In this document: piece after piece, positions 4,638 through 10,084 of the stretch | Layout of the letters: every line of letters starts with the position of its first letter | Position numbering within the stretch: position 1 is the stretch's first letter | Source: Mobilicoccus caccae | GTDB lineage: Bacteria > Actinomycetota > Actinomycetes > Actinomycetales > Dermatophilaceae | Length of the DNA stretch: 32,000 nucleotides | NCBI RefSeq assembly: GCF_030161635.1 | Contig: NZ_BSUO01000001.1 | Span: forward strand, 817,199 to 849,198 | Reading direction: 5' to 3' | The notes under the pieces: model-generated | The model's input: the letters and a program-made list of their open reading frames with translations, nothing else | Databases searched by the model: none | What the model was told of the DNA's origin: nothing | Translations under genes and position numbers: made by a program

Positions 4638-5582
4638 TCAGTCCTCTTCGTCGGCGGAGGCCGCGTTGGAGATGGACGAACGGTCGAACGGGGTGCGTTG
4701 GTAGACGCTGTAGTTGAGCCAGTTCGCGTAGAGCAGGTAGGCGTGGGAGCGCCACCGCTGGCGCGGCGGCTGCGCGGGGTCGTCGCCTGGGTAGTAGCCG
4801 CGGGGGACGGCGATGTCCTTGCCCTTGGCGATGTCGCGGTCGTACTCGCCCTTGAGGGTGTCGCGGTCGTACTCGGGGTGTCCGGTGACGAAGATGCGCC
4901 GACCGTCCTTGCTGGCGGCGAGGTAGAGGCCGGCCTCCTCGGAGGTGGCGATGACCTCCAGGTCGGGCTCGGCCTCGATGTCGGCGATCGAGGTGCCCGT
5001 GTGGCGGGAGTGCGGCGCGAGGAAGGTCTCGTCGAAACCACTGACGGTCGGGGCCAACGGCTGGTGCACGCGGTGCTCGAAGACGCCGAACATCTTGGCG
5101 TCGAGCTCGTGCTTGTCGATGCCGTAATGCCGGTACAGGCCGGCCTGCGCGCCCCAGCACACGTGCATCGTCGAGTACACGTTGGTGCGGCTCCAGTCGA
5201 GGATCTCGCACAGCTCGGGCCAGTACTCGACCTCCTCGAACCGCAGATGCTCCACGGGCGCCCCCGTGATGACGAGGCCGTCGAACTTCTCGTCCCGCAC
5301 CTGGTCGAAGGTGCGGTAGAACGCGTCGAGATGCTGACGGGCGGTGTTGCGCGACTCGTAGCTGCGCATCGTCAGCAGCGTGATCTCGACCTGCATCGCC
5401 GTGTTGCCGAGCAGACGCAGCAGCTGGGTCTCGGTGTCGATCTTCGTCGGCATGAGGTTGACGATGGCGATCGACAACGGCCGGATGTCCTGCATGTCGG
5501 CGCGCTCGCGTGACATGACGAAGACGTTCTCGCCCGCGAGCGTGCGACGGGCAGGTAGTGCGTGCGGGATTCTGACGGGCAC
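4638..5582 (-). CDS. metA: Homoserine O-acyltransferase, MetA type (succinyl- versus acetyl-CoA specificity not decidable from sequence)
   Basis: Collinear with E. coli MetA: [82 protein letters not shown]. Start set at GTG 5582 by alignment to the MPIRVP N-terminus, with GGGAG upstream. The listed ORF extends to 5657. Confidence 0.88.
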
Positions 5583-5702
5583 GAGTAGGACTCCCGAGTG
5601 ATCGAGGAACCGGTCCGGGCCTGGCCGGGGGTGTGTCCACGATACGGCTCGGGTCACGGACGGGTCGGGCCGGTCCGGCGGGCGGAAGGCGACACCTCTA
5701 GA

Positions 5703-5727
5703 TGTACTGACCGGACACGTTGATCGA
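5703..5727 (+). repeat. Left terminal inverted repeat (IRL) of the IS481-family element
   Basis: tgtactgaccggacacgttgatcga, compared with the reverse complement of 8678-8702, tgtactgaccggggacgttggtcaa. Confidence 0.75.
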
Positions 5728-5744
5728 CTACATGCCGTGAGGTC

Positions 5745-5793
5745 ACCTCCTGGTTGGTGCCACTTGTTATACTTGTGGCACCAACCAGGAGGT
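5745..5793. promoter_or_regulatory. 19-bp perfect inverted repeat (operator or RBS-sequestering hairpin) enclosing an extended -10 and the Shine-Dalgarno of the AbrB-like gene
   Basis: acctcctggttggtgccac (5745-5763) / gtggcaccaaccaggaggt (5775-5793), with 11-nt spacer ttgttatactt. TGtTATACT lies at 5765-5773. The right arm contains AGGAGG (5787-5792), 5 nt before ATG 5798. Confidence 0.6.
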
Positions 5794-5797
5794 CAGC

Positions 5798-6046
5798 ATG
5801 GACATGGATCAAACGCCCCCACCGGGCAAGTACGCCGCGACGGTCAAGGTCGGCCCCAAGGGACAGGTCGTCATCCCCAAGGGTGCGCGGGAGCTCTTCG
5901 ATATTCACCCGGGCGACACCCTGCTCCTGCTCGCTGACGCGAACCAAGGGATCGCTTTGATGCGCCAGGAGACGCTCGATCAGATCGTCATGCAGGCGAT
6001 GCCTAGCCATCAGGCCCCCGTGGACTCCGAGGGTGATGAGGGATGA
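5798..6046 (+). CDS. AbrB/MazE/SpoVT-family DNA-binding protein (82 aa)
   Basis: SpoVT-AbrB signature VKVGPKGQVVIPKGARELFDIHPGDTLLLL with an acidic C-terminal tail. Strong SD. The stop overlaps the next start (ATGA at 6043-6046). Confidence 0.8.
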   Translation: MDMDQTPPPGKYAATVKVGPKGQVVIPKGARELFDIHPGDTLLLLADANQGIALMRQETLDQIVMQAMPSHQAPVDSEGDEG

Positions 6047-6972
6047 AGAATGTCGTGAGCTGTGCGGCTGTCAGCCGCAACTTCGGCAGCTTCACTGCCC
6101 TCGAAGACGTCTCCTTCAAGGTCCGCGAAGGAGAGATCTTCGGGGTCGTGGGCCCGAATGGTGCTGGTAAGACGACCCTGTTGAACTGCCTGGAAGGACT
6201 GGACCGCCCCTCGTCTGGGCACGTCGAGGTGCTCGGCTGCGACCCCATCAAGGACCAGCACTCGTTGGCTCAGCAAATTGGGGTCCAGCTGCAAAGCGCG
6301 GCCCTGCCACCTCGCCTCACTGTGCAGGACGCCCTCGAGCTCTACTCCGCCCTCTACGAGCGTCCGCGGCCTTGGCGCGAACTGCTGAAGGATCTGGGGA
6401 TCAAGGACAAGGCCAACGCCCGCGTTGACAGGCTCTCGGGTGGGGAGCGTCAACGAGTGTTCGTCGCCCTCGCCTTGATCAACCGTCCCCAGCTCGCCTT
6501 CTTGGACGAGCTCACCACCGCTCTCGATCCTCAGTCACGTCGAAACATGTGGGACACCGTCGAGCACGTCCGCGATAGCGGTGCAACGGTCGTTCTCACA
6601 ACCCACTACATGGAGGAGGCCGAACGGCTATGCGACCGTGTAGCCATCATCGACCACGGCCGGTTGGTTGCTTTGGACACAGTGGCTTCCCTCATCCAGC
6701 AACACGCCGGCGAAACCACGGCGAAGCTCATCCTGTCGGCGTCGCCTAGCGCAGAGTTCGACCTCAACGGAGTTCCTGGCGTGACCAGCGCTCGAACAGA
6801 GGGACGGGAACTGACCATCCGCGGCACTGCGGACGGGCTGCAGGGCGTCCTTGCTGCACTGGCGGCACACCGCATCACCGTAACGAGCATGAGCACGACG
6901 ACCCCCGGCCTTGAAGACGTCTTCCTGGCCCTCACCGGTCGACACATCACCACCGAGGAGCAGGCGGCATGA
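6043..6972 (+). CDS. ABC transporter ATP-binding protein (ABC-2/DrrA-like exporter ATPase)
   Basis: Walker A GPNGAGKTT, signature LSGGERQR, Walker B LAFLDE and H-loop TTHYMEEAE. ATGA overlaps at both ends. Confidence 0.92.
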   Translation: MKNVVSCAAVSRNFGSFTALEDVSFKVREGEIFGVVGPNGAGKTTLLNCLEGLDRPSSGHVEVLGCDPIKDQHSLAQQIGVQLQSAALPPRLTVQDALELYSALYERPRPWRELLKDLGIKDKANARVDRLSGGERQRVFVALALINRPQLAFLDELTTALDPQSRRNMWDTVEHVRDSGATVVLTTHYMEEAERLCDRVAIIDHGRLVALDTVASLIQQHAGETTAKLILSASPSAEFDLNGVPGVTSARTEGRELTIRGTADGLQGVLAALAAHRITVTSMSTTTPGLEDVFLALTGRHITTEEQAA

Positions 6973-7721
6973 ACGCATATCGAGCCCTTCTCAAAGCCCT
7001 ATGGCGCTCCCAGCGCCGCGACCCTGTAGGCCTGTTCTTCTCTTTCGGTTTCGCGCCGGTTTTGGTGCTGGCCTTGGGTGTGATCTTCGGTAACGATCCG
7101 CGACCGGAGTTCGGTGGACGGGGATTCCTCGATGCGACCCTGCCCGCCTTCGCCTCTCTTGTTCTCGCCATGACCGGGGTCCTCCAGGTGCCCGTGGCGA
7201 TGCTGACCCTTCGTGACACGGGCGCACTCCGACGCCTGAGTCTTACGCCGCTGCGTCGTTCCACCTTCATCGCAGCGAGCCTCACCGTGCACTTCGTCGT
7301 AGGTATTGCGGGCATGCTCACCGCTTTGGCGATTGGGATCGGGGTTTTCGGGGTGCCCATGCCTAGCCACGTCCCAGGTGTCCTGGCCGTGTGCCTCATC
7401 GGGCTCAGCACCTTCCTCGCAGTGGGTTGCGCGCTTGCTGCGCTCTATCCGTCCGCCACTGCCGCTACGGGCATAGGGAACGTGCTCATGATCCTGCTCA
7501 TGCTCACATCCGGAGCCTTTACGCCATTGGCGGCGATGCCGTCGGCGATTCAGCAGATCGTTAAGTATTCACCCGTCCGTTGGTTCGTCGAAGCCGCTCA
7601 ACACGCGTGGGACGGCGACCCACTAGCCGCCATGATCATGCCGGTGTTTCTTCTGTGCGTTGTACTCGCCGTCGCTGCTCTCGTTGGCCGGTGGCGCTTC
7701 CAGTGGGAGCCGGTCCGATGA
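6969..7721 (+). CDS. ABC-2 family transporter permease
   Basis: Six predicted hydrophobic segments. N-terminus MNAYRALLKALWRSQRRDP is typical of ABC-2 permeases. The C-terminus ..GRWRFQWEPVR aligns without gaps to the resident paralog at 19101..20069 (..VRRYLKWEPRR). Confidence 0.88.
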   Translation: MNAYRALLKALWRSQRRDPVGLFFSFGFAPVLVLALGVIFGNDPRPEFGGRGFLDATLPAFASLVLAMTGVLQVPVAMLTLRDTGALRRLSLTPLRRSTFIAASLTVHFVVGIAGMLTALAIGIGVFGVPMPSHVPGVLAVCLIGLSTFLAVGCALAALYPSATAATGIGNVLMILLMLTSGAFTPLAAMPSAIQQIVKYSPVRWFVEAAQHAWDGDPLAAMIMPVFLLCVVLAVAALVGRWRFQWEPVR

Positions 7722-8707
7722 CGACGCACGCGAACGCCGCTCTCACACCTCGCCACCGACTCAAGGTCGCCCGCCTCGTCGTCGACGAAGGATGGCCGAT
7801 CAGCGAGATCGCAGCCCGGTTCCAGGTGTCGTGGCCCACCGTGAAGCGTTGGGTAGACCGCTATCTGTCCGGCGAGTCCATGCAGGACAGGTCCTCGCGC
7901 CCGAAGAACTCACCGACCAAGACATCGCTCGCGGTCACGAAGCGCTGTATCAGCCTGCGAATGAGGCTGCGAGAAGGACCGGTTCAGCTCGCCGTGCGCG
8001 TCGGTGTCGCTCCATCGACCGTGCACCGCATCCTGCGCTCGACTCGATTGAACCGACTTGCTTACCTCGAACGCGCCACTGGCGAGCTAGTTCGCCGGTA
8101 CGAACACCGCTACCCTGGCTCCCTCGTCCATGTAGACGTGAAGAAGTTCGGGAACATCCCCGATGGCGGTGGCTGGCGCTACGTGGGCCGCCGCCAAGGA
8201 GAGAAGAACCGTTCCGCCACCCCCGACAAGCCGAAGAACAAGTGGCGCGATCCCAAGCTCGGGTACGCCTTCATCCACACCGTGATCGACGATCACTCAC
8301 GAGTGGCGTACTCCGAGGCCCACGACGACGAGACCGCCACCACTGCGGTCGCTGTGCTGCACCGTGCGGTCGAGTGGTTCACCGATCGTGGCGTCACTGT
8401 CGAACGAGTCTTATCAGACAATGGCGGTGCCTACCGCTCGCACCTGTGGCGCGGCACCTGCGAGGAGCTGTCCATCACCCCGAAGCGGACCCGCCCCTAC
8501 CGGCCGCAAACCAACGGCAAGGTCGAACGCTTCCATCGCACAATGGCCGACGGATGGGCTTACGCTCGCTGCTACACCAGCGAGCAGGAGCGTCGCGACG
8601 CACTCGCTGACTGGCTCCACCACTACAACCACCACCGGCCGCACACGGCCTGCGACTACCAGCCGCCCATCTCCCGATTGACCAACGTCCCCGGTCAGTA
8701 CAGCTAG
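7718..8707 (+). CDS. IS481-family DDE transposase
   Basis: MTTHANAALTPRHRLKVARLVVDEGWPISEIAARFQVS (HTH), HVDVKKF, SDNGGAY and RPYRPQTNGKVERFHRT (DDE triad). ATG 7718 overlaps the permease stop. The TAG at 8705-8707 lies outside the IRR, in the flanking CTAG. The listed ORF begins earlier, at 7580. Confidence 0.92.
   Translation: MTTHANAALTPRHRLKVARLVVDEGWPISEIAARFQVSWPTVKRWVDRYLSGESMQDRSSRPKNSPTKTSLAVTKRCISLRMRLREGPVQLAVRVGVAPSTVHRILRSTRLNRLAYLERATGELVRRYEHRYPGSLVHVDVKKFGNIPDGGGWRYVGRRQGEKNRSATPDKPKNKWRDPKLGYAFIHTVIDDHSRVAYSEAHDDETATTAVAVLHRAVEWFTDRGVTVERVLSDNGGAYRSHLWRGTCEELSITPKRTRPYRPQTNGKVERFHRTMADGWAYARCYTSEQERRDALADWLHHYNHHRPHTACDYQPPISRLTNVPGQYS
8678..8702 (-). repeat. Right terminal inverted repeat (IRR) of the IS481-family element
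   Basis: The reverse complement reads tgtactgaccggggacgttggtcaa. It overlaps the last codons of the transposase. Confidence 0.75.
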
Positions 8708-8711
8708 CGCC

Positions 8712-9281
8712 TCAACTGCCGTCGGCGGTGAGGATCTCCCTGCTCCAGGTGTCGTCGGTGCGGGTGTAGACGATGCGCAGGTGCTTGCGGTCCGGTGATC
8801 CCTGCCAGAACTCGATGCGATCGGGGCGCACCCACCACAGGCGCCAGTCGCCATCGGCGACCAGGGACTGCGCCTGCGGGCTGCGGGCGGCGAGATCGGC
8901 GGCGCTCTCCTCGGGAGTGCCCTCGACGGCGCGACCGCGCACACGGACCGCCCGCGTGAGGGGCTGCCACCAGAAGCTCAGTGCCGCAGCAGGATTGTCG
9001 GCGAGTTGCTCACCCTTGCGGCTCGAGGCGGTGCTGGCGAAGGCCCAGCCGCGTTCGCCGACGTCCTTGAGGATGAGCAGTCGGGCATCCGGAATCCCGT
9101 CGGCGTCTGCGGTGGCCAGGGTCGTCGTCCGCGGCTCCGGCACGCCGGCCGTGACGGCGTCCTCCAGCCAGTCGAGGAAGAGCGCGGTGGGCTCGGCGGG
9201 GAGTCGCTCCAGGTCGAGGGTGGGCGGCGTACCGGTGAGGGCGGGGATGGCCGCGAGGCGGCGGCGCACGTCGTCGGTCAT
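8712..9281 (-). CDS. pdxH: Pyridoxamine 5'-phosphate oxidase (PNPOx) family protein
   Basis: TTLATADADGIPDARLLILKDVGERGWAFASTASSRKGEQLADNPAAALSFWW and the C-terminal RIEFWQGSPDRKHLRIVY match the PdxH pattern. The start overlaps the upstream gene's stop (ATGA). Confidence 0.75.
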   Translation of the reverse strand: MTDDVRRRLAAIPALTGTPPTLDLERLPAEPTALFLDWLEDAVTAGVPEPRTTTLATADADGIPDARLLILKDVGERGWAFASTASSRKGEQLADNPAAALSFWWQPLTRAVRVRGRAVEGTPEESAADLAARSPQAQSLVADGDWRLWWVRPDRIEFWQGSPDRKHLRIVYTRTDDTWSREILTADGS

Positions 9282-10084
9282 GCCTCGATCGTGTCACCTC
9301 TCCTCGAGCTGATCACCCCGGTTCGCCGGACGGCTCGCTCGTCCCGGGCGACCCGTCGTCGCACCAGCCCTGACGGACACGCCACGGAGGCCGCCCGGGC
9401 ACGATCGGTGGTCCACGGCCACGTCATCGCGGCGAAGACGACGGCGAGCAGCGCTGCCACCGACAGCAGATACCACGGCCACGGCCCGAGCAGGTCGAGA
9501 GCCGAGGCGACACCGGGAGGCTCGGAGACGAAGCCGTAGTTCGTGCCGAGGACCGCGTTGACCGCGAGGGCGACCCCGGCCCAGCCCAGCGTCGTGAGGT
9601 AGCCGGCGGCGAACCCCCGCCAGGTCGGACGGTAGCCGAGCCCCCACACCAGCACGATCGGCGCGACCAGGGCGACGACGTGGAGGAACCAGTACATGCC
9701 GAACTCCAGGGCGGGGTTGCGGAAGTACACGAGATCCGGGGTGAGGACCGCCTGGAGATTGAGCGTCAGCCCCCAGTAGTAGGACATGACGACGGCCCAG
9801 CCCGAGCGCGTGATGAGCGCGACCCCGGTGATGACGCGCAGCCAATCCGAGAGGTGGAACGGCAGGGACTGGTGGACGTCGAAGTGCCCGGGCAGCCACC
9901 ACCACACCATCCACCCCAGGCCGGCGGCCAGCATGACCCACCCGAACGCGCCGACCCAGCGCTCGGCACCCGGCCGTCGCGCGGCCGGCACACCGACGGC
10001 GATGGCGACGATGGTGATCGCCAACACGACCAGGTGGGGCGTGCTGTAGTTCTGCATGAACCCGATCTCGGGCACTCCTGCCAT
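9278..10084 (-). CDS. TIGR02206/YwaF-like integral membrane protein
   Basis: Polytopic hydrophobic protein with FMQNYSTPHLVVLAI, LPFHLSDWL and YWFLHVV motifs. Start at ATG 10084 or 10057. The rest of listed ORF 9278..10759 is antisense to the DUF488 gene and is not credible coding sequence. Confidence 0.6.
   Translation of the reverse strand: MAGVPEIGFMQNYSTPHLVVLAITIVAIAVGVPAARRPGAERWVGAFGWVMLAAGLGWMVWWWLPGHFDVHQSLPFHLSDWLRVITGVALITRSGWAVVMSYYWGLTLNLQAVLTPDLVYFRNPALEFGMYWFLHVVALVAPIVLVWGLGYRPTWRGFAAGYLTTLGWAGVALAVNAVLGTNYGFVSEPPGVASALDLLGPWPWYLLSVAALLAVVFAAMTWPWTTDRARAASVACPSGLVRRRVARDERAVRRTGVISSRRGDTIEA

Follow-up and report, generated by a model that had tools for sequence, protein, structure and literature searches.

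The window, a 32,000-nucleotide stretch of the Mobilicoccus caccae contig NZ_BSUO01000001.1, carries between positions 5703 and 8702 what is, judging from its sequence, very probably a 3,000-bp autonomous IS481-family insertion sequence (IS) with passenger genes, i.e. a transporter IS (tIS). A three-gene operon for an AbrB-type regulator and a putative ABC-2 exporter appears, with the same high confidence, to have been captured between the left repeat and the transposase gene of this 3.0-kb element. Transcription and translation of the transposase most likely run on from that operon, whose last gene it would be, and on the best reading of the sequences the window copy sits at the junction of a large inversion between two copies of the element. 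The high confidence applies to the tIS itself and to the explanation as a whole (tIS, operon coupling and inversion taken together).

The longest inverted pair within 5400–9000 has arms at 5698–5725 and 8680–8707 (28 nt, 86% complementary). Setting aside the flanking CTAG and the base next to it, the terminal repeats are the left inverted repeat (IRL, 5703–5727, + strand, TGTACTGACCGGACACGTTGATCGA) and the right inverted repeat (IRR, 8678–8702, − strand, reverse complement TGTACTGACCGGGGACGTTGGTCAA), the latter lying within the 3′ end of the transposase gene. They are identical over the first 12 nt and match at 21 of 25 positions overall, and a CTAG stands one base outside each end, all of which had been described in an initial annotation made from the sequence alone. 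The repeats are imperfect and start with 5′-TGT, as in the IS481 family, and flank comparison across copies placed the true element ends at TGTACTG...CAGTACA. The IRL is invariant in seven aligned copies, and all other copies examined are identical to the IRR over 26 nt. With one mismatch allowed, the 12-mer TGTACTGACCGG occurs in the 32 kb only at the two element ends; the initial annotation had held that genome-wide abundance of this 12-mer would speak against a mobile unit, and over the window, which is the extent searched, it is not frequent. A 20-mer covering both ends (TGTACTGACCGGNNACGTTG, up to three mismatches) was likewise found only there (0.02 expected; 0 of 100 shuffles reached two). 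One transposase gene and two repeat sequences are present, which is not the make-up of a composite transposon with two complete IS copies, each with its own repeats.

The composition of the element, which had also been called foreign, is indeed so: its GC content is 63.4% as against 69.5% and 70.1% in the flanks, and that at third codon positions (GC3) is 0.72–0.80 as against 0.88–0.94 in host genes, which supports a foreign origin. CTAG occurs seven times in the window (5698, 6003, 6746, 7363, 7623, 8087 and 8704), where shuffled sequences would lead one to expect about 28. All seven are in or at the element and none is in the remaining 29 kb of host DNA, suggesting that target sites of this IS family are very scarce in the host.

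Relatives of the transposase were scanned in one genome per species, giving 80 loci, and window positions 5200–9200 were compared with these by BLASTN. Full-length matches to 5698–8707 were found in six genomes at 96.4–99.6% identity: Nesterenkonia halobia (L002, 99.6%), Brachybacterium massiliense (L003, 99.5%), Brevibacterium mcbrellneri (L004, 99.1%), B. iodinum (L005, 97.9%) and two Corynebacterium species (L006, 98.9%; L022, 96.4%). A further match, in Propioniferax innocua (L080), has an internal deletion. In every BLASTN match flank homology extended at most 14 nt beyond the CTAGs. Exact look-up of the permease added contexts L093–L102 (93–99.7% identical), including Corynebacterium doosanense and a Brachybacterium isolate. 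The whole unit is thus found, 93–99.7% identical, in at least 12 unrelated genomic contexts in Nesterenkonia, Brachybacterium, Brevibacterium, Corynebacterium and Propioniferax.

At 12 distinct insertion sites the element is flanked by a perfect 6-bp duplication of the target, NCTAGN: CCTAGA (L001), ACTAGA (L002), GCTAGT (L003 and L100), GCTAGC (L004 and L022), GCTAGA (L005, L006 and L097), CCTAGG (L080 and L098) and TCTAGA (L093/94). NCTAGN is also the target of IS481 itself. A repeat of this form has been reported for ISRe46/TnRErm46 (PMC6794481). The unit is conserved, homology stops at the repeats and there is no internal repeat or second transposase in the window, which is what is expected of a tIS, whose passengers lie inside the transposase's own repeats and move together with it. 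The proposal that the repeats enclose regulator, ABC-2 exporter and IS481-family transposase as one mobile unit is borne out by this recurrence, and the extra copies with different flanks that had been anticipated were found in many genera. The transposase would act on the two ~25-bp repeats beginning TGTACTGACCGG, and the whole 3,000-bp unit would insert at NCTAGN, duplicating those 6 bp. The sequences, together with the organism names on the records, point to recent horizontal spread of the element among actinobacteria of several orders. A megablast search of the element against the PLSDB plasmids gave no full copy, only distant transposase pieces.

The four open reading frames (ORFs) of the element are all on the + strand and every start overlaps the preceding stop in ATGA. 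The first (5798–6046) encodes an 82-aa AbrB/MazE/SpoVT-family DNA-binding protein that scores above the curated cut-offs (PF04014, 34.5 bits, cut-off 24.7; TIGR01439, 50.6 bits, cut-off 28.3) and has weak matches to solved AbrB and SpoVT structures. Its exact sequence is found on 181 contigs, and it is presumed to be the autoregulator of the operon. The second (6043–6972) encodes a DrrA-like ABC transporter ATP-binding subunit of 309 aa (PF00005, ABC_tran, E = 6.7e-31; DrrA1-3_C matched below its cut-off) and overlaps the regulator stop; the third (6969–7721) encodes an ABC-2 type permease of 250 aa (PF01061, ABC2_membrane, E = 8.6e-24), overlaps the ATPase stop and has its exact sequence listed in 471 blocks of the sequence collection. 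The permease has weak DrrB-family matches (drrB, TIGR01247, 30.9 bits as against a cut-off of 223). The pair belongs to the general families ABC_tran and ABC2_membrane and scores below the curated subfamily models of DrrAB-type exporters (TIGR01188 and TIGR01247). It resembles DrrAB and is a putative exporter of the ABC-2 class which, by analogy, most likely expels a toxic small molecule or peptide. In searches of PDB sequences the closest solved nucleotide-binding domains were of the ABCA type only and the permease had no match, giving no clue to the substrate. Two other readings of the cargo were discarded. A PADLOC scan gave only generic ATPase matches, leaving a defence-system role for the AbrB/MazE and ATPase pair unsupported, and a toxin–antitoxin role for the MazE-like protein was rejected because a toxin gene is missing and stand-alone exporter operons begin with the gene for this same protein.

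The fourth ORF (7718–8707) is an intact 329-aa IS481-family DDE transposase in a single reading frame, matching NF033577 (transpos_IS481) over model positions 1–284 of 284 with 334.2 bits (cut-off 224). It has the helix-turn-helix and integrase-core domains of such enzymes (Pfam HTH_23 and HTH_28 at the N-terminus, rve and rve_3), and the motifs HVDVKK (138), VIDDHS (189) and NGKVERFH (266) give the D, D and E contexts at about residues 140, 191–192 and 270, the catalytic residues being assigned by motif only. The ORF crosses the right repeat, and its TAG stop (8705–8707) is outside the element, supplied by the flanking NCTAGN. As the stop lies in the target, the last codon is A+NC and the last residue depends on where the element has inserted (S, N, T and I were seen; window 8690–8707, L001–L006, L022 and L080). 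Exact look-up of the window transposase returned no record, and its place was taken by the close cluster P0001 (143 members, 98% identical). In public annotation the protein is named only as "IS481 family transposase".

Upstream of the AbrB gene is a perfect 19-bp palindrome with an 11-nt loop (5745–5793, + strand; arms 5745–5763 and 5775–5793, 100% complementary). The loop carries TG-n-TATACT (TATACT at 5768–5773), the right arm carries an AGGAGG ribosome-binding site (5787–5792) and the RNA fold has z = −6.45. These features make the palindrome a putative promoter/operator of the operon. A core, GTTATACTTGT, is common to the region upstream of the AbrB gene in the stand-alone operons of Corynebacterium casei and Saccharomonospora marina, suggesting that the cargo was captured with its native promoter/operator. 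The promoter/operator core is the sole hypervariable spot among the copies, where the alignment shows 9, 18 or 27 bp of GTTATACTT(GTGGCAC...) duplicated in tandem (L001:6036–6083; leaders of L006, L022 and L093). In a copy from a Propionibacteriaceae metagenome-assembled genome a 50-bp deletion between two GAGGTCA repeats has removed the whole palindrome.

Cargo-free relatives of about 1.0–1.3 kb had been predicted, and elements of 1,101–1,105 bp with the same repeats and an NCTAGN duplication were found. These have a 116–119-nt leader before the transposase gene, whereas the window element has none. A hairpin-containing spacer with a ribosome-binding site is present at this position in ISArsp12 and in the sister elements L010, L012, L014, L016 and L019, described below. 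As the transposase ATG overlaps the permease stop and there is no leader, expression of the transposase most likely depends on the cargo operon, of which it would be the fourth gene, and is controlled by the AbrB-type autorepressor.

The window copy also has flanks that are both NCTAGN, but they are unequal: TCTAGA on the left (5697–5702) and GCTAGC on the right (8703–8708). Its neighbours are HTS/MetA and PNPOx; in the M. caccae record metA is GMA38786, the cargo GMA38787–89 and PNPOx GMA38791. The initial annotation had taken the element for a simple insertion between the stop of the pdxH-like gene and the metA upstream region, with an empty site reading cgacacctCTAGcgcctcaactg. This part of it proved wrong. 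Metagenome contigs 99% identical to the window flanks (i.e. conspecific) contain two separate empty sites. At site A (L087, L089 and L091) the order is an APH-aminotransferase gene, ...GGCGACACC TCTAGA GGGCGCCC... and metA, and at site B (L082) a GntR regulator and a malonyl-CoA decarboxylase gene lie across ...GGAGGAGG GCTAGC GCCTCAACTG... from PNPOx. Regulator and ABC genes at this place without the repeats or transposase, which would have spoken against the mobile unit, were not seen in these contigs. The left hexamer would be half of the target duplication at ancestral site A, between the APH-aminotransferase 3′ end and the metA upstream region, and the right hexamer half of that at ancestral site B, between the GntR-side intergenic region and the PNPOx stop codon.

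A second cargo copy is present in M. caccae in reverse gene order (permease GMA40475, ATPase GMA40476, AbrB GMA40477). On its transposase side are an ERCC4-domain protein (GMA40470) and an APH-domain protein (GMA40472), and on its AbrB side GntR (GMA40478) and malonyl-CoA decarboxylase (GMA40479). These are exactly the partners that sites A and B lack, and they are ordered and oriented as an inversion predicts, which suggests that the window copy is a recombinant product located at an inversion junction. The two copies, about 1,690 annotated proteins apart, would have inserted at the distant NCTAGN sites A and B in opposite orientation; homologous recombination between them would then have inverted the intervening chromosome segment, leaving two hybrid junctions, of which the window copy would be one. 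The unequal hexamers are accounted for by such recombination, and a direct metA–PNPOx empty site is then not expected to exist.

It might be argued that an ordinary 1.1-kb IS481-family element simply lies beside a resident regulator–ABC operon, the sequence at 5703–5727 being a chance or relic repeat and the cargo host DNA. Stand-alone versions of the operon do occur in other actinobacteria, and cargo-free 1.1-kb relatives exist. However, no left-repeat-like sequence was found in 5728–8677 with three mismatches allowed in 18 specified bases, and so none near 7718, where a separate IRL would have undone the initial annotation. Nor is there room for an end beside the transposase gene, as had been pointed out: the ATG shares bases with the permease TGA, and the PNPOx stop codon follows 4 nt after the end of the TAG. 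The cargo is absent from both sites in the conspecific contigs and foreign in GC3 and CTAG content, and the entire 3.0-kb unit has 6-bp duplications at 12 distinct sites. We consider this explanation refuted. Hardly more credible is that the unit moves only as a passenger of a larger mobile element (a plasmid, an integrative and conjugative element or a composite transposon) and is itself inactive. In every context homology breaks off a few bases at most from the repeats, and the genes on either side are unrelated housekeeping ones. Every complete copy is bracketed by a 6-bp duplication of its own, and a single transposase gene is present with no internal repeat. In favour of the passenger reading, some copies are on plasmid-like contigs (e.g. 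L100, with replicase and resolvase) and some are decayed, the transposases of L080, L094 and L101 being truncated.

A greater, though still small, probability is given to the window copy being a simple single insertion with no real inversion, its hexamers made unequal by point mutation or by a mis-join across the 3-kb repeat. In L101 the two hexamers differ at one base of the duplication, repeats of 3 kb can cause mis-joins in assembly, and the second copy is known from protein order. A point mutation, however, cannot explain why metA and PNPOx have other neighbours across intact NCTAGN in 99%-identical contigs, and the neighbours of the second copy are exactly reciprocal and ordered as an inversion predicts. 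That the M. caccae record consists of a single 4.39-Mb contig points to the repeat having been spanned, though it is no proof. Several points nevertheless weigh against the preferred explanation of a mobile tIS with an operon-coupled transposase and an inversion between two copies. The inversion relies on protein accession order for the second copy, and an assembly mis-join, a minority alternative, would give the same picture. The duplications are imperfect at L095/96 (GCTAGC and ACTAGG) and at L101 (TCTAGA and TCTAGC), and transposition of the element is deduced from comparative sequence, not experiment. For the exporter, the drrA score of the ATPase (TIGR01188, 258.6 bits) is under the cut-off of 312, which leaves its membership of the DrrA class in doubt. 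The coupling of the transposase to the cargo promoter is drawn only from the gene overlaps and the absent leader, and it is possible that a weak internal promoter in the permease 3′ end would drive the transposase instead. A sigma-70 consensus scan of 5500–8900 found no promoter, the proposed one included, although such a scan says little for a high-GC actinobacterium.

Other observations were made at these junctions. The region upstream of metA (about window 5690–5702) has the APH-aminotransferase gene in L087, L089 and L091 and an unrelated divergent gene in L088, L090 and L092. Both arrangements have CTAG at the break point, suggesting that the locus varies between (near-)conspecific strains independently of the IS. 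Contigs L083–L086 end exactly at window 8708, but this was rejected as a sign of IS occupancy, because contigs would break at this point just as well where the GCTAGC variant branches from an L081-type one (GTAGCC). The closest homologues, besides itself, of the GntR/FCD regulator beside site B (P0186) are about 70% identical and all from Paracoccus or other Rhodobacteraceae, with no actinobacteria among them; the GntR and malonyl-CoA decarboxylase neighbourhood may itself have been horizontally acquired. In C. doosanense CP006764 (L095/L096; locus coordinates 2288 and 6735–9734) the unequal hexamers are accompanied by a solo IRL 12-mer 4.4 kb upstream, which hints at another IS-mediated rearrangement. 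For annotation, the lesson is that an IS-mediated inversion can be recognised from unequal hexamers at the ends of an element. Scanning all 32 kb for Rfam families and tRNAs gave no match; no riboswitch was detected upstream of metA, and no tRNA target.

IS481-family elements with passenger genes are already an established kind. The doubt expressed in the initial annotation about novelty was therefore justified: the concept and close relatives have been described, and this cargo combination was not found described. ISArsp12, from the Arthrobacter sp. ANT_H2 plasmid pA2H1 (terminal repeat TGTACTGACCGGACACGTTG), has an IRL that matches the window IRL at 24 of 25 positions, a 6-bp NCTAGN duplication (CCTAGA) and a co-oriented cargo, regulator then membrane transport protein, between IRL and transposase. 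It differs in carrying ArsR and a single permease in 2,615 bp, as against AbrB and a two-component ABC-2 exporter in 3,000 bp, and in having a spacer of about 80 nt (hairpin and ribosome-binding site) between cargo and transposase in place of the ATGA overlap. About 95% amino-acid or 90% nucleotide identity is usual in practice for the same IS or isoform. With a transposase 79.2% identical in amino acids (pA2H1 copy) and a different cargo, the window element is neither for ISArsp12/ISPfr21. ISArsp12 itself, with its repeats, CCTAGA duplication and cargo of ArsR and permease, was reported to be 86% identical to ISPfr21 of Propionibacterium freudenreichii (PMC6305408). That paper is the only one in the library searched that contains the repeat sequence, and no description of an AbrB and ABC-2 exporter cargo was found.

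Two resistance elements are of similar design. In Tn5564/IS5564 (Corynebacterium striatum pTP10) the efflux gene cmx is directly upstream of, and co-oriented with, an IS481-type transposase gene, with a stop/start overlap (TGATG), one inverted-repeat pair and a CCTAGG duplication, and the element has spread over many actinobacterial plasmids and beyond (PMC8304765). Its transposase is 61% identical to that of the window element, its repeats differ (TGTGATGTCCAGG...), its cargo is one MFS exporter (cmx, chloramphenicol) without a regulator, and the pTP10 copy is interrupted by IS1513. TnRErm46/ISRe46 (Rhodococcus equi, 6.9 kb, erm(46)) likewise has a single IS481-family transposase, encoded last, that mobilises the cargo upstream of it, including a regulator and transport proteins; there are NCTAGN direct repeats beside TGT... 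inverted repeats and multiple documented insertion sites (PMC6794481). It differs in having six cargo genes, including those for a TetR regulator, a membrane transporter, an ABC ATPase and erm(46), and other repeats (TGTTGCGGGTC...); its movement is documented across isolates, while the mobility of the window element is deduced by comparison.

The same three genes in the same order form stand-alone chromosomal operons in C. casei, Nigerium massiliense and S. marina. Permease identity is 57–73%, and the ATPase/permease overlap of the window element is shared by C. casei and S. marina. Unlike the element, these operons lack a transposase and terminal repeats and keep to one chromosomal context within a species. 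No characterised function was found for stand-alone AbrB and ABC-2 operons.

Sister elements with the same kind of ends and NCTAGN duplications were found at L007, L010, L012, L014, L015, L016, L019, L020, L021, L034, L035 and L044. In the loci fetched the cargo is always between the IRL and the transposase. It comprises a glyoxalase (2,041 and ~2,485 bp), an unknown protein with TfoX_N (2,509 bp), a WYL regulator with NmrA (2,744 bp), DUF2938 with an XRE-cupin regulator (2,173–2,206 bp) or DUF2268 with a MerR/TipAS regulator (2,783 bp). There are at least six other cargo classes with the same kind of ends, counting the ArsR and permease of ISArsp12 among them. By this comparison the window element is one more apparent member of a clade that repeatedly holds a regulator and effector module between left repeat and transposase. 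The recurrence of the same ends with at least six other cargo modules suggests that the clade is a recurrent gene-capture platform, and it is a good system for asking how an IS acquires passengers.

Nothing here would surprise a mobile-element specialist, but the element is a clean, well-bounded case of an IS moving a complete self-regulated efflux system between bacterial orders. Near-identical copies occur in human-associated isolates and other actinobacteria (Corynebacterium, Brevibacterium, Brachybacterium, Propioniferax and Mobilicoccus), and a distribution this wide implies that export of the pump's substrate has recently been under selection. Should that substrate be an antimicrobial, the element would represent a mobile resistance determinant so far unrecognised, with the same design as the cmx element Tn5564.

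A more speculative proposal, which we think improbable though it deserves mention, is that the transposase is hard-wired to the cargo circuit, being made only when the AbrB-type repressor frees the exporter operon. The signal that makes the cargo useful, presumably the toxic compound to be exported, would then also trigger transposition. The same doubt covers, jointly, two further suggestions. The 19-bp palindrome, specific to the tIS, would pair AGGAGG with CCTCCT in transcripts entering from outside and so silence read-through expression, and selection to tune the switch would account for the duplications and deletions so often seen in the operator core when copies are compared.

Finally, the plasmid-like contig ena:ERZ27280527 k141_264544 contains a composite (L100:5526–9221). 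In it the left 2,051 bp of the element, at 99.95% identity, are joined head-to-head, within about the first 90 nt of the transposase gene, to what appears to be half of another tIS, the left one, with adh_short and TetR. The composite has no transposase left, yet GCTAGT is present at both outer ends. It may have moved without a transposase of its own, helped in trans.

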